A stretch of DNA of 64,000 nucleotides from Marsupella aquatica (taxonomy: Eukaryota; Plantae; Marchantiophyta), in NCBI GenBank assembly GCA_973895155.1, contig OZ316896.1, forward strand, positions 18,774,754-18,838,753, in the 5' to 3' direction. Below are positions 39,301 to 48,940 of the stretch, piece by piece; the first letter of the stretch is position 1, and each line of letters begins with the position of its first letter. The notes beneath the pieces are model-generated. The model saw only the letters and a program-made list of their open reading frames with translations, was not told where the DNA came from and ran no database searches. The position numbers were made by a program, and so were the translations under genes.

Positions 39301-39675
39301 GAAGCTTGGAATAGTGACTGCAGACCCATGTGTCGTACAGGGAGGAAGGTAGAGAGGTCTTTCGTTTCACGGTTTTGTACGGACGGATCTGATGTAGCCC
39401 CGCGAGACTGTTGTTCTCACTACCAAGTTTGTAGTTTCTTTATTCACCTGCAACCAAGAAAGCTTGAATTCGGTCACAGAGGATCGTTCAACATTTGAAC
39501 TCTTCTCTGAACTCTGAATCGGACAGTTCCAGCTGGTTTTGGGATCCGCCTGTGTTGCTCATGGTTGCTGACGGTCAACAGCGGTCGAAGGTCGTTTATT
39601 GAGGAGTATTCCTGATCGAGTTCCTGATTAGGTGGTACCGGTAGCTCTGGTTTTTGTCGAGCTTGTCTATCATCA

Positions 39676-40128
39676 ATGGCAGGGAGCAGGATGTGTACAC
39701 AGTGCTGGGGCTTGCTGTTGTTGACGGTGTTGTTCATCGGGACTTCACATCATCAAGTGCATGGCCAAACGTTGCTCAGCGACAATACTTGGGCAATCGT
39801 CAGCGTGCAATGTTTTGCTTTCGCCGGCCAGACTTTGCAGAGCAATTACGGAGTATGGTGGATGCAGGTGAACGGGTTGTCGTCGCTCATGTTCAATGCC
39901 GTAGACGTCGCCACGACCGAAATTGATTGCCACTTCGTCTCGCTGGCTAATGGTGCACACCAATGGTTCCCCGTCTTCAAAACAGCTGGTCTAGTAGTTG
40001 CCTGCGGAGCGAATTGCCATTGGACCATACATGACAGGGGATTCTTTCTCCACGATCCCGTCGCGAACACTGATGTGCAACTCTATTCTTGGCTGGCTCC
40101 TCCGGACAATTGGACTGAACCGCACTAA
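39676..40128 (+). CDS. Small secreted protein, S-protein homolog (SPH / self-incompatibility S1-like) family, 150 aa, intronless
   Basis: Hydrophobic signal peptide (WGLLLLTVLFIG...VHG), then SPH-like pattern: VSVQC, T.IDCHF, WFPVF, C-x3-C-x-W-x-I-x3-G-FFL, terminal Y-x-W. Confidence 0.7.
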   Translation: MAGSRMCTQCWGLLLLTVLFIGTSHHQVHGQTLLSDNTWAIVSVQCFAFAGQTLQSNYGVWWMQVNGLSSLMFNAVDVATTEIDCHFVSLANGAHQWFPVFKTAGLVVACGANCHWTIHDRGFFLHDPVANTDVQLYSWLAPPDNWTEPH

Positions 40129-43155: not shown

Positions 43156-44121
43156 AAACAGTCTGATGAGTGTGTCTCTTCAGTAAGGGTTCAATTCACT
43201 GGTATGTATGGGTGACTTATGGTTATCTAGAGTGACTTATGACCAATCTTCATGGCAAAAAGTTATGGTCTATGAATTTGGTAGACCAATTTTTTTCTGT
43301 GGGTAAGCTTGACTAATTAGTGATTGTACATCAAATTTGAAGCTTTGAGAGTCCCTACTAGTCTTTCTTTATTATGAGTGTTGGACATTGTAAGTTGCCT
43401 AGTGTGCGCCCTAAACCTAAATCACTGTTTTGAGTGTCACTCAATGTTGCCTATCATTGTAAGCTGCCTATCATTGTAACTTGCCTATTACACACCCTAA
43501 ATCCTAGAGCACTTTTTTGAATGTCAATGCTTCCTATCATTGTAAGCTGCCTATCACGCACCCTAAACTCCAAACCATTTTTTTGAATGCTAAGTACCAT
43601 AAAGTAGTTTTTTTTAGTGCTACCTAGCTATGTACCCTAGTTGAGTTCACTTAATACTAGTCATCCCACCAAATGTAGACCAGGGCTCATCATTGTGACA
43701 AGTGAGCCTTTGAGCTGGAGCGTCATTAACTCACCAACGTTTACACAAACCTCTATCCCAGAGTGGGGTAGAAATTCTTTGCACAGATCCCCCTTCCCAA
43801 AAGGGAAGTTCACCCAAAAGCCCTTTTGCACATAAAGGACTTGACACTTGTGGTGGCTTTACAAAAGCAAGGTGGCAGGTATTTTTTTGTCCTCTGTCTG
43901 ATGTACTCCTAGCCGTTGAAGTGGGAACTACTACAAGAACTGGGCAGGAGTTTCAGGCTAAACCATTACCAATCCTAGTCCCTGTCCTAGTCATGCCCTA
44001 GTGGGCCCCTTTTACTGATCTGTACATCCTTAATTTTTTTGTGTTAGACTGAATGGACCATGCCTTTATTTGGTCTTGCATTTATTATCTTCAGACCTCA
44101 CATCCCAAAAAGAATTAGGCA

Positions 44122-44760
44122 AGCTTTTTATCAACCTGTCCCCCTAACTTGCCGAAATTCGTAAGCTGTCCCCCAAACTATTTTATTTACTTTCCTGCCC
44201 CCCATTCAGTATACGAACTGGTATGTTAGAAGTATGGTGCTCTGGATGCCAGGTGGCAAGGCGTCATTGGCCCGGATGATTCTGGCTTGTACTCCTTCCC
44301 CCCTCCCTGTCGGGCCCGTTTTCCTGATGCAAGGACCCAGGAGGAGGCCAAACGGCCCTGCCATGAACCTCCGCTCCCCCCCTAATTTTCCGCTGCCCCT
44401 GAACTCCGCTGCCCCTGCCCTCGCAAGCGCCAACCTCAGCGGACCTGAGCCTGAGCGAACCCCCAGCCTTTGCGTTCTGAGCCGAACCCTGGACCTCTGC
44501 TGCCCCTGCCTTCGCCAGGCTCAACCTCCATCGAGCCTGAGCCTGAGCGAACCCCCGGCCTCCGCTGCCCTTGAGCCCTTGCAAACCCTCAACCTCGGCT
44601 GCTCCTGAGCCCTCGCAAACCCCCGACCTCCGCTCCCCTAAGCCCCATTTTTAGTAAGGAAAAATGTCGCGATTGTTCACACATTCGCCTCCACGGTTTT
44701 GGCAGTGTGATATGCTTGCTCTCGATTGAACGCTGCTGCACCCTTCGCCCATAGGGTTTA
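44122..44760 (+). repeat. Left TIR of the MULE, including expanded subterminal repeats
   Basis: Reverse complement of 48433-48940, with extra copies of CTCCGCTGCCCCTG / CCTGAGCCTGAGC / GAACCCCC units at about 44460-44640. Confidence 0.9.
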
Positions 44761-45258
44761 TGCACAGAGCCGCAACAAAGTTTTTGAATGAGTGCGGGAA
44801 TCTGTGTCATCGTCTTCCCTGCATTTTCTTGCCCTGTTCTTACAAAGAAAACAACATTGGGCAAATTTTGGTTCCAGACTTCAGCCTGGTTAAGCTGCAT
44901 TCAACTTCACTCGACTTTGCTGCCTTGACAACACCAGGAATTCATGATCGGCTGCTGGCTAGGGGGCAGTTGGAGGGCGCTGCAGCTGCCATGGAACACA
45001 CGACAGCAACAGCCTAAACATTGAAGGTATCATTCTTGGAACAAATTGACTGAATCCAAGCTAGGATGTCCACAACACTAGCAATCTGATCCCTTGGACA
45101 GTGTCATTAGCGTGACAAGGTAGACTCAATTCTGCTTGAACTATTCTGAGCTTTGGCACTGTCTATGTTCATTTCAATCCCTGCCTGGAACATGTGAACC
45201 TGCTGTGAAACAGTTATGCTAAAATTTCAATTTCTATGTTTCTATGTTTGTAGGTATT

Positions 45259-47237
45259 ATGGATCCACAAACACCTATCAAGTTGCAAGTCGGGACAACA
45301 TTTGAGAACTGGGAGGACTTGAAGAAAGTCATTGTGGATGAGGGAGTAAAAACTGAGAGAGTTCTTGTCACCCAAAAGAAGGACCATACAAAGTGGAAGG
45401 TAAGATGTCGAATGAATGAGGACACCAATGAAAGGCAGTGCCCCTGGTGGCTGAGGGCAACAAAGAAGTCTAGAACCGAAACTATAACCATAACAGTAGC
45501 CAACTTGCACCACTCATGTGAAGCTGCAGATCACTACCACCGCAGGATGCATTCCAATTCAGACAGGCTTGCTGACCGCATAATGGATATTATCGGTAAG
45601 AATCGCCAAACCAGACCCTCATTCTTGAGGGACTCAGCCCAAGCATTAGTCCATCCAGATATAAAATACCACACTGCATATGCTGCAAAGCAAAGGTGTT
45701 TAAAACGATTAGATGGAGACCAGACAGAGTCATTCAAGTTCATCCCTGCCCATTGCCACCATATCCTTGAACGTGACCCAGGGGCATTTGCTAAGTACAG
45801 GGCTCCTGGTGGTCAATTGGATATGTTGTTTGTTTGCCCTTCGGCTTCCAAGGAAGCATATCGTCATTGCAGGCCCATGGTGGCCTTGGATGGCACCCAT
45901 ACACGGTGTATGTATCCTGGAGTTTTACTTTTGGCCACCACACTCGATGCCAACAACACTGTGATTATTCTTGCTTACAGTTGGGTGCCATCAGAAAATG
46001 AAGAGAACTGGATGTTTTTCCTGAATTTGTTACGAGATTCCATTCCTAACTTGAGCAAGATAGGCACTGTGTTTATTTCAGACAAGGAGAAGGGGTTGAC
46101 TGATGGGGTGCCACGAATTTTTCCTCATGCATATCCTGCATATTGCACATGGCACCTAGCAGAGAATGTGCATAAACACTACGGAAAAGAAATCAGGAAG
46201 TTGTTTGAGTCCTTGCCTTATGCAATGACTCCAACAAAGTTCAGTCTTAGATTGGAGAAGATCAAGGCTAAAAACCCTGCTGCTGCTCAGTACATTCAGA
46301 GAACAGCAGATCCTAAATATTATTCAAGAGCATTCTTCCCTGGTCGAAGGCAAGTCATTTTCAATTGCTATAATTGTTTTGTTTCTAGACCATGTTTTGT
46401 TGCTCAGAGATGCTGGATGTTTTTGTGATCTGAAATTGTGAGCATTGAACAATGGTTTGTGCCAGGTGGGGCCATGAAACTTCACAGCAAGCTGAAAGCA
46501 GTAATCGTGCTTTCAAACCCCAACGACAGGAGGTAACATTGAATATGTCTTCTCAGATTTGGGATTATATCATGGTCAAATATTTTGAAAAGCGGGAATT
46601 GGCTACCAGTGTCACAACTCCATTCCCACCAAACATTATGACATATTTGAGGGACATTGAAGAGGCAGCCACTCACCTGACTGCCCACCCTTCCAATGCA
46701 ATTGAGGTTCAGATAACTGATGATAAAAACAATCAGTATCTTGTGCAGTTTGAACCTGAGTGGTTTTGCAGTTGTGGCGATTTCCAGGACACTTTGTTAC
46801 CTTGTGTGCATGCATGGCGGGCCTTGACCAGATTGTGTTTAAGGCATTATTATTATGTTTCCCCATTGTATACAACTGACACATTCCGGGCGACATATAT
46901 GGCTCATCTCCCCGCATTATTGAGGACCGAATTGCTGCCAGACCCCCATTGTGGACCACCGTTGAAGAAGCGTAGGAAAGGACGTCCCACAGAGCGACTA
47001 AGGATGCAATTTCAAGGTGAGGAAGTGTGTAGATTGCCCAGGAAGTGTGGTGTGTGTGCTGAACGAGGCCATGACAAGAGGAGCTGCCCAGAACGATCAG
47101 CAGCAAGAGAAGCCCTTCGACAAAATGCTGAGAAGAGCCAAGACAACATGGACATGAACAACACTGATAGTAGTCAGGAAAGCTTGGACATTGGGACCTT
47201 CTCTCAATTGCTTGAGACAGTAGAATCACAGAGATGA
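45259..47237 (+). CDS. MuDR/Mutator-family transposase (about 620 aa), exons 45259-46349 and 46466-47237
   Basis: N-terminal MuDR domain (LQVGTTFENWEDLKK...C...CPWWLRA...HHSC); DDE core VALDGTH, FISDKEKGL, CTWH, AESSN; SWIM finger CSCGDFQDTLLPCVHA; zinc knuckle CGVCAERGHDKRSC. A GC-AG intron (46350-46465) joins the two ORFs in frame (PGR-R-WGHET). The start could alternatively be the ATG at 45244. Confidence 0.92.
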
Positions 47238-47551
47238 AACCTGTAGGCCAATTTTGTTCACAGAATGTGTGAGCTTGGAAGAGCACACCACCACTTTTTG
47301 TAATAGTCTAGCACCTGTATACAGGCTTTTTTGTAAACCATTTGCAATAAATTTCATAAATTCCAATAAGAGATATGTGGAATGAAATGAGGCCATGTTA
47401 CACACTATTGTTCAAACAGTCTCACAGACTCATGATTGTTTGTGCAAATTGTTTGTGCAAATTGGTATTTTTATTGCATGGAAACTCAATGTGCATGAAA
47501 GGTCAAAGTTGCTTGAATGATACTGGGAAAGTGAAGTATTGGTCAATCTAC

Positions 47552-48151
47552 TTATGTTGCAGTATGGGGCATTCCCCATGTACCTCGTGCCCTCAATCCA
47601 TTGTGCATGTACTCTACAGCCTCTGCCCTAGTCTTAAACGATTTGAATTTACAATCACTAAATCCCCAGACTTGCTGATTACATTCATCCCATGTCTCAT
47701 AAATTCCTGGCTGAAATCCACGAACAACAGCGTAGAATTTTCTCTTTTGCCCTGCTTTCCACACTGTTTTTGGACCATTCACATACTCCACCGGCAAACC
47801 AGTGCCCATCCCAGCTGAAACTGTCCTTGGTTCTCCTACTTTGCCACAAACAGCTGCTGCTACTATTGCCAAAGGTACTGCTTCAGGGGTTCCAACCTCG
47901 ACCTTCATCCTGTCACAAATATCCACAGGTCCTTTCCCGTGCTCACTCATGAAATCTGGAGGCATTTCAGGTGCAGAAGGTGTAGGATTGGGTAATGTAT
48001 GTATGTGCTCATAACGATTCACACAAGCATGCAGATAATCTGTGGCACTGTCCAACAAGTTTGAGATGAAACGAAAAATTGAGGCAAGCAATCTAACAGC
48101 TAGCCAAATGCATATTGCAAATGTGTTGAAAACAATGCCCCACTTTGCCAT
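47552..48151 (-). CDS. MULE accessory protein (199 aa): N-terminal hydrophobic helix plus C-terminal RNase H1 N-terminal hybrid-binding (Cauli_VI/viroplasmin) domain
   Basis: ATG at 48151 in gccATGG context. KFYAVVRGFQPGIYETWDECNQQVWGFSDCKFKSFKTRAEAVEYM (47740-47606) matches the FYAVxxGxxxG(I/V)(Y/F)xxWxECxxQVxxFxxxxFKxFxTxxEA consensus. No RNase H catalytic domain follows. Confidence 0.82.
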   Translation of the reverse strand: MAKWGIVFNTFAICIWLAVRLLASIFRFISNLLDSATDYLHACVNRYEHIHTLPNPTPSAPEMPPDFMSEHGKGPVDICDRMKVEVGTPEAVPLAIVAAAVCGKVGEPRTVSAGMGTGLPVEYVNGPKTVWKAGQKRKFYAVVRGFQPGIYETWDECNQQVWGFSDCKFKSFKTRAEAVEYMHNGLRARGTWGMPHTAT

Positions 48152-48432
48152 GGCCACAACGTCTCTCCCTGGAAGCTTTCCAAAATATAGAATCCAGAAA
48201 CGTGTCGAAAGAAAGTGCTACTGATAGTGCTCCACCTAGCAACGGCTTAATTGTCACCCTCGGCCAGCATTTGATCAGGTGCGCTACAGGAAACTAAGAC
48301 GCAGGCCGAACAGCTACCAGCATTGAAAAAAAAACATCAACCGGGAACATCAATCAACAAACCGCAGGATTGCAGGGTTGAAAGAGAGAGCAAACGATTG
48401 CAAACACTTACGACTTCGCAGTGACTTTCTGT

Positions 48433-48940
48433 CTAAACCCTAGGGGCGCACCAAGATAGCAAGCCTGCCAAACATTGCAGCTGATCAAAGGTCGAGAGCG
48501 AGCTGCCAAAAGTTGGGAGGCAAATGTGTCAACATTCCCTGCATTTTTCCTTTGTAAAAACGGGGCCGGGGGTTCGCGAGCGCTCAGGGTTCGCGAGGGG
48601 TAAGCTCAGGCTCAGGCTCCACGGACATTGGGGCTTGTGAGGGCAGGGGCAGCGGAGGTCAGGGGCAGCGGAAAATTAGGGGGGGAGCGGAGGTTCGTGG
48701 CGGGGCTGTTTGGCCTCCTCCCGGGTCCTTGCATCAGGAAAACGGGCCCCGGCAGGGAGGGGGGAAGGAGTACAAGCCAGAATCATCCGGGCCAATGACG
48801 CCTTGCCACCTGGCATCCGGAGCACCATACTTCTAACATACCAGTTCGTATACGGAATGGGGGGCAGGAAAGTAAATAAAATCGTTTGGGGGACAGCTTA
48901 CGAATTTCGGCACGTTAAGGGGACAGGTTGATAAAAAGCT
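48433..48940 (-). repeat. Right TIR of the MULE
   Basis: Inverted copy of 44122-44760, lacking the subrepeat expansion. Confidence 0.9.

Follow-up and report, generated by a model that had tools for sequence, protein, structure and literature searches.

A Mutator-type element of Marsupella aquatica whose second gene encodes a predicted RNase H1-type hybrid-binding protein

The maize Mutator element MuDR carries its two genes, mudrA and mudrB, in a convergent layout. MURB, VANC and PMD are the few accessory genes of Mutator-like elements (MULEs) that have a known function, and none of them is described as recognising RNA-containing duplexes. Long terminal inverted repeats (TIRs) of MULEs have been linked to hairpin RNA and small interfering RNA (siRNA) (PMC6446971). 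Here we describe a MuDR-type element in the DNA of Marsupella aquatica (contig OZ316896.1; the window is the whole stretch of 64,000 nucleotides from 18,774,754 to 18,838,753 of the forward strand, and positions are counted from its first letter). The element contains a transposase gene and, convergent to it, a second gene, ORF2, whose predicted product carries near its C terminus the hybrid-binding domain (HBD) known from RNase H1 and lacks a nuclease domain.

ORF2 is very probably a selected accessory gene of this Mutator family, as judged from the substitutions among its copies. As for its role, we tentatively favor, at somewhat less than even chance, a non-cleaving binder that would shield the duplex RNA or R-loops of the element from host silencing. 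An earlier annotation, made from the letters alone (hereafter the original prediction), had proposed that the second gene encodes a MULE accessory factor, and this proposal gains support from a gene that is present at the family level, appears selected, occupies the mudrB position and encodes a hybrid-binding domain without a nuclease.

The ORF2 protein and its hybrid-binding domain

No open reading frame (ORF) of the length of ORF2 (Table 1) arose in 2000 shuffles. Against Pfam, its product matched Cauli_VI (PF01693) with an E-value of 4.6e-19 (68.8 bits against a cut-off of 21), the sole family at E-values up to 1. There was no Pfam match to an RNase H catalytic domain, and the frame stops 18 codons past the Cauli_VI match. 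The original prediction had anticipated both the 199-residue ORF with an RNase H1 N-terminal domain and this outcome of the Pfam comparison. Relatives, translated by hand, end at the same place. No Pfam match to MURB, PMD, VANC, DUF1985 or DUF287 was obtained either, MURB not having been compared directly. By these profile comparisons, ORF2 is neither mudrB, PMD nor VANC, nor an RNase H1 enzyme.

The PDB entries matching ORF2 in sequence were 3BSU, 1QHK and 6VRD only, all of them N-terminal domains of human or yeast RNase H1. A model of the domain, built on a 32-sequence alignment, has the order β-β-α-β-α with a predicted local distance difference test (pLDDT) score of 92–95, and lies within 0.7–1.0 Å of the human HBD in complex with a hybrid (3BSU). 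By sequence and by model, the ORF2 domain is a genuine RNase H1 hybrid-binding domain.

HBDs recognise duplexes by shape, not by sequence. Human W43, F58 and K59, which we take to contact nucleic acid, align with W154, F169 and K170 of ORF2. In the human HBD, Y29 and K60 contact the DNA backbone, and R52 and A55 contact RNA through their main chains (PMC7657459). Y29 is retained as Y140 of ORF2, and R52 and A55 correspond to G163 and D166 (G and N in Drosophila). The human HBD binds hybrids tightly and dsRNA (double-stranded RNA) weakly and the yeast HBD does the reverse (PMC7657459), so that a preference of ORF2 for one or the other is not readable from homology. ORF2 probably does bind duplexes. 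In the proteins P0056, P0100, P0104 and P0083, hybrid-binding domains occur in tandem next to a PIF1 or UvrD helicase in a single fused chain that has no RNase H.

Alternatively, the domain could serve mainly to bind proteins or control translation at a membrane, rather than to guard the duplexes of the element. TOR is bound by residues 136–182 of the caulimovirus protein P6, which also suppress immunity and autophagy (PMC5670102), and HBDs are reported to take part in dimerisation and protein contacts (PMC7657459); K60 is replaced in ORF2, and the N-terminal helix would set the domain on the cytosolic face of a membrane. However, ORF2 retains the contact aromatics and K59, and its best matches in both sequence and structure are RNase H1 domains. 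We consider such a module unlikely.

The original prediction had also described the protein as membrane-anchored, with a Pro-rich linker. The hydropathy of the N terminus (Kyte-Doolittle values of 1.8–2.06, with the peak at 2.06) agrees with an anchor, whereas Arg20, the high hydrophobic moment (0.6–0.69 over residues 15–44) and the single long helix (residues 3–50) in a poor, single-sequence model of the whole protein (pLDDT 50) speak less for one; one relative has Lys at position 9. A signal or membrane anchor is plausible, if marginal, and the segment may instead be an amphipathic helix. "Pro-rich" overstated a linker with six Pro in residues 50–70. Just ahead of the hybrid-binding domain lies a basic W-K-x-G-x-K patch, and the basic stretch K132–K138 is kept in relatives.

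Family copies and selection on ORF2

Copies were surveyed in the contigs of six public runs (X1–X6), five of which contain the whole or part of the stretch. No RNA data set was listed as containing 45200–48400, which speaks neither for nor against expression. Each run had 186–701 contigs on 43–50 kb, flanking repeats included. The ORF2 region (47450–48300, at least 80% identity) was covered by 64 contigs in X4, 60 in X2, 18 in X5 and 14 in X6, most of them below 90% identity in each run (39 of the 64 in X4 and 38 of the 60 in X2). That copies of the element carry the ORF, a point on which the original prediction had hinged, held for diverged copies, which have it in the same position; some copies are frameshifted.

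Several contigs place ORF2 within its element. Joints at 47213–47563 (X2, X4) and 47354–47565 (X1, X2, X4) connect the 3′ end of the transposase gene to that of ORF2, and a joint at 48172–48492 connects the 5′ end of ORF2 to a sub-terminal repeat, with the proviso that joints at low likeness can arise from repeats and that the longest sides measured 37–42 nt. An 847-nt contig has the domain, the Pro block and the N-terminal helix in order, and in a copy that differs at 60 places over 451 nt the sole gaps measure 6, 3, 3 and 3 nt. Hand translation of loose contig ends showed that IWL (15–17), EYLNGP (122–127) and WKLGKK (131–136) are kept and that the stop falls at codons 197–198; two further loose ends, homologous but out of register, were left out. 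The median summed depth, which reflects where relatives stay alignable and not copy number, was 2089 in X4 and 672 in X2 over the domain, 800 and 381 over the N-terminal helix, 399 and 125 over the linker, and 250–256 and 81–132 over the non-coding flanks.

Of the 31 listed substitutions in ORF2, 19 were silent, against an expectation of 19–28%. The excess was concentrated toward the C terminus, where residues 137–199 had 13 silent changes among 16 (p about 1e-6 to 1e-5) and the hybrid-binding domain had 10 among 12; p ranged from 2e-7 to 1e-4 across the three counts, and the count ratio for the domain part was about 0.05–0.08. The original prediction had named a dN/dS near 1 as a sign against it; silent substitutions were instead in excess. 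These results argue for a selected gene and not a fresh capture, since 13 of the 16 changes in residues 137–199 are silent. The transposase gene had 16 silent substitutions among 28 listed. A 147-residue ORF on the opposite strand (47375–47818, plus) was rejected as the selected frame: the best plus frame had 10 of 17 silent, compared with 14 of 18 for ORF2 over the same stretch, and we take it as an antisense shadow of ORF2.

Searches for relatives of the protein reached little beyond the domain. HMMER gave 4676 hits, of which the best 150 match through the domain. In this best set, the closest of 347 domains was 63% identical, residues 1–110 had no match beyond marginal extensions, and a MULE domain was not among the Pfam families (best five per protein). 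Word-index searches for homologues of ORF2, which covered proteins of 109–349 and 30–108 residues, found none. In the protein atlas, the whole of ORF2 resembled stand-alone Cauli_VI clusters of Basidiomycota (0.92), and residues 1–135 had no hit. A full-length relative emerged from none of these HMMER, word-index and atlas comparisons. A metagenome scan gave three loci; the two inspected (L001 and L003) encode ordinary full-length RNase HI.

These data bear on a second alternative, in which ORF2 would be idle cargo of Pack-MULE type, taken from an RNase H1 gene, its silent excess inherited from the donor or contributed by HBD genes outside transposons. MULEs do capture host fragments (PMC6446971), frameshifted copies are present, and the silent excess is significant only around the domain. 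On the other hand, a single silent site differs in 15–16 contigs of each run, diverged copies keep the three parts of the protein in order with the same stop, two joints link ORF2 to the end of the transposase gene, the closest of the 347 domains is 63% identical, and the N-terminal part has, marginal extensions apart, no match among the best 150 proteins or in the atlas. Recent host capture is unlikely in view of how the diverged copies are spread, and idle cargo as a whole seems to us quite improbable.

The element, its transposase and its surroundings

The TIRs consist of 201 nt of 96% identity (44122–44322/48740–48940) and a continuation of 132 nt of 92% (44312–44443/48618–48749), giving a core of about 320 nt in total; beyond it, inverted homology is patchy, as far as about 44780/48410. 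The left end is fixed at 44122 because 12 contigs of X4 have unrelated sequence ahead of it. Repeats of 17–34 nt lie at 44369–44640 and 48577–48692, the main motifs in four versus two copies per end, and are possible sites for the transposase or the accessory protein.

A target-site duplication (TSD; 8–11 bp expected) was found neither abutting the TIR ends nor, apart from a distant 11-mer and 8-mer, within 400 nt of them. The exact 11-nt direct repeat at 43944/49056 was rejected as a TSD, its copies being 178 nt away from the left TIR and 116 nt away from the right one, and is either a chance match or the relic of an older insertion. Imperfect TSDs are common among maize Mu elements (PMC10401008). 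To the left of the element lie a very high-copy short repeat (43233–43290) and a 17/66-nt tandem array (43386–43589), and to its right another repeat ends at about 49315; these neighbors may explain the absent TSD. A DDE transposase with MULE domain, CxxH motif and SWIM finger, long TIRs and dispersed copies were all found, as in members of the MULE superfamily, and the complete transposase frame sets the element apart from Pack-MULEs, which have no transposase. Going by its letters, 44122–48940 works like an element of MuDR type that includes an accessory gene; of the MULE features looked for in it, the TSD alone was not found at this copy.

As the original prediction held, the transposase is complete: its 620 residues (Pfam: DBD_Tnp_Mut, MULE, SWIM) are stop-free once the inferred 116-nt intron is taken out. 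Its borders are GC-AG, the less common type; one diverged copy has 117 different letters at its site, and the ORFs of the homologues P0002 and P0003 end shortly past the same motif as at the intron. Relatives of 45–61% identity were found solely on contigs of 1–3 kb, and a scan of viral contigs with the transposase gave nothing. The predicted MuDR-like layout stood as regards the two convergent genes, whose stops are 314 nt apart (about 315 bp had been foreseen). It did not stand as regards start codons just inside the TIRs, the ATG of the transposase lying 816 nt and that of ORF2 467 nt inside the respective cores, the latter behind a predicted 243-nt intron in the 5′ untranslated region (UTR) and in a strong start context.

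A high-depth joint in X2, X3 and X4 (44276–48544) reveals a short, internally deleted, non-autonomous derivative resembling a miniature inverted-repeat transposable element. At several positions within 44727–45075, every covering contig of X2, X3 and X4 differs from the window; these are private changes or assembly differences in the window copy. Rfam gave no match over 43–50 kb. The window is gene-dense land-plant DNA, with genes for plastid FBPase, a Rieske protein and a plant S1-family protein; the ORF at 39628–40128 has a plant self-incompatibility protein S1 domain (E-value 1.2e-7).

Table 1. Positions and supporting evidence for the parts of the element
Feature	Position	Strand	Evidence or remarks
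MuDR-type element	44122–48940		TIR-bounded, two convergent genes
Left TIR core	44122–44443	+	inverted-repeat detection and alignment; contig flanks in run X4
Transposase coding exon 1	45259–46349	+	DBD_Tnp_Mut, MULE; D211, D275, CxxH
Inferred GC-AG intron, 116 nt	46350–46465	+	removal restores frame
Transposase coding exon 2	46466–47237	+	E374, SWIM, basic patch, zinc knuckle
Spacer between convergent stops, 314 nt	47238–47551	.	AATAAA at 47346 (+) and 47475 (-); unalignable in some diverged copies
ORF2 accessory gene	47552–48151	-	199 aa, 22 kDa
RNase H1 hybrid-binding domain (Cauli_VI), residues 138–181	47609–47740	-	profile match, structure model, silent changes
N-terminal hydrophobic, then amphipathic helix, residues 3–36	48044–48145	-	hydropathy, moment, model; diverged-copy cover above non-coding flank
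Predicted 5′ UTR intron of ORF2, 243 nt, T-rich	48169–48411	-	GTAAGT...TTCCAG; a diverged contig aligns to 48172 and resumes at 48492
Right TIR core	48618–48940	-	inverted-repeat detection and alignment; patchy homology back to about 48410

Possible roles of ORF2 and comparison with known systems

If ORF2 shields nucleic acids of its own element, the duplexes could arise as follows. As in MuDR, transcription of both genes would run inward, beginning at the TIRs. The original prediction had looked to convergent transcription or TIR foldback for dsRNA and R-loops; we rejected overlapping convergent mRNAs as the main dsRNA source, because the AATAAA signals in the spacer would end the two RNAs apart. 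Read-through into the far TIR would then be the chief source of duplexes; this TIR, transcribed in the sense direction, is G-rich (GC skew of +0.25 to +0.32) and would yield RNA prone to R-loops. Such RNA could also fold into dsRNA, since the far TIR is complementary to the 5′ TIR part of the RNA itself. The domain of ORF2 would coat hybrids or dsRNA without cutting them, in competition with host RNase H1 or proteins of the Dicer pathway, and the N-terminal helix would tether ORF2 to a membrane (that of the endoplasmic reticulum or the nuclear envelope), to a partner or to itself, lending an avidity beyond the reach of one small domain.

A number of observations weigh against this interpretation. 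At the level of the protein, the DNA-backbone contact K60 is S171 in ORF2 (among 347 homologous domains, S occurs at this position in 106 and K in 129), a membrane anchor is hard to reconcile with R-loops in the nucleus, and the placement of the AATAAA signals, with the separate RNA ends that it implies, speaks against a convergent overlap. At the level of selection, residues 1–136 have no significant silent excess (6 of 15, p 0.11–0.24), the counts rest on 31 of 40 tool-chosen rows out of 224 differences (nine being upstream of ORF2), pooled over paralogues, and part of the contigs counted may derive from other HBD genes. As to the copies, near-identical ones carry one extra nucleotide at 48073 (codon 27), at a depth of 214.6 out of 310.1 in X1 and 34.6 out of 34.6 in X3; codon 173 is hit by a 1-nt insertion in one diverged contig, a second such contig shows changes of -10 and +88 nt that are in frame on balance and shifted in between, and one listed change, if alone, would turn codon 147 into a stop. 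The TSD expected of the MULE superfamily is missing at 44122–48940, so that the mobility of this copy is putative.

Frameshift decay is usual among transposon copies. Neither X2 and X4, which have the open allele, nor the diverged copy of 451 nt shows the insertion at codon 27; a piece in X5 has one gap at an unlisted place. The original prediction of an intact element agrees with the long TIRs and both open frames and conflicts with the missing TSD and the shifted copies of X1 and X3, by which "intact" holds for the window allele only. One might go further and see in ORF2 a former accessory gene that a decaying family no longer needs, as would fit the absent TSD, the frameshifts in these two runs and the depletion of CpG in both genes (0.31–0.33 vs 0.62 for the window). 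Against such decay stand the 96% likeness of the TIRs, the two open frames of the window copy, the open allele of X2 and X4 and the high depth of the internally deleted derivative, and we regard it as very unlikely.

A stronger competitor for the shielding role, albeit still a doubtful one, is that ORF2 acts as a MURB-like cofactor of transposition, in which the N-terminal helix would dock on the transposase (or else on the nuclear envelope) while the domain would steer or stabilise integration at R-loop-rich gene starts. ORF2 has the convergent second-gene position of mudrB, the window is gene-dense, and the basic patch K132–K138, which relatives retain, might act as a nuclear signal. MURB binds the N terminus of MURA, and transposition is inhibited when MURB is lost, integration being the step probably affected (PMC12973397). 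Cauli_VI also occurs within PIF/Harbinger transposases, in 3 of 217 clusters (PMC12973397), which suggests a function alongside the transposase. On the opposite side, ORF2 has no Pfam match to the MURB, PMD or VANC domains, and its strongly hydrophobic N terminus suggests membrane capture. A complex prediction for residues 1–205 of the transposase with ORF2 scored 0.00, which is evidence in neither direction.

Cauli_VI has been met before in DNA transposons. Table S6 of a 2025 study counts it in accessory proteins of 1 of 1846 MULE, 3 of 775 CACTA and 1 of 217 PIF/Harbinger clusters (PMC12973397), the main text being silent on it, and the gene capE captured by the Pleurotus Helitron helpo1.3 carries PF01693 (PMC4289320). 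ORF2 is accordingly not the first MULE gene with Cauli_VI, judging by this one tallied cluster, which may or may not be the present family. The statement of the original prediction that no characterised MULE has this cargo survives as far as characterisation goes: no functional study of a Cauli_VI or hybrid-binding gene in a MULE was found in the full-text literature, a coverage that excludes supplements and most subscription papers. The presence of the same domain in accessory genes of unrelated transposon superfamilies suggests a recurring solution, so far only counted. We would venture, as a speculation with perhaps one chance in a few, that MULE, CACTA, Harbinger and Helitron elements repeatedly recruited a nuclease-free RNase H1 head for counter-silencing, and that this Mutator family anchors it to membranes to sequester R-loops or fold-back RNA before the host reads them. 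As a small, probably selected gene with a domain of known biochemistry, ORF2 opens to direct test the long-standing question of how elements remain active when their long TIRs favor hairpin RNA and siRNA, and a natural nuclease-free hybrid binder might serve as a plant R-loop probe.

Among the known systems, the Cauli_VI clusters and capE share with ORF2 the Pfam domain and its location in a DNA-transposon gene other than the transposase gene; in these sources they differ in being counted or mentioned only, without species, architecture, selection or function. P6 (TAV) of caulimoviruses likewise has a 40-residue duplex-RNA-binding motif and no nuclease, but is about 520 residues long, and its silencing suppression maps to residues 80–110, outside the shared domain (PMC5670102). 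The analogy to a viral silencing suppressor, drawn in the original prediction, is weak for this reason, the dsRNA-binding domain of P6 (136–182) binding TOR, although other regions may join in other types of suppression (PMC5670102). VANC of the Arabidopsis VANDAL elements is a MULE accessory protein with a proven anti-silencing role; unlike ORF2, it contains DUF1985/DUF287 and recognises a short motif in DNA (PMC5735166). The PMD-bearing MULEs of angiosperms (groups 42 and 45–50 in Table 1 of Dupeyron et al. 2019) also have a second, often antisense gene with a proposed anti-silencing role, whereas ORF2 has no PMD match and an RNase H1-type domain appears in none of the 50 groups of that table (PMC6446971). 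The HBDs of human (3BSU) and yeast (1QHK) RNase H1 resemble the ORF2 domain in sequence (41–44% identity), fold (0.7–2.0 Å) and most contact residues; ORF2 differs in having no catalytic domain, in the C-terminal position of its HBD and in the change of K60 to S. Maize MuDR, finally, likewise combines long TIRs and a MULE transposase with a single accessory gene of its own (PMC6446971, PMC10401008). The present element differs from it in the absence of a TSD and in its second gene: mudrB was described as having an unknown function, whereas ORF2 combines a recognisable nucleic-acid-binding domain with a hydrophobic N terminus.

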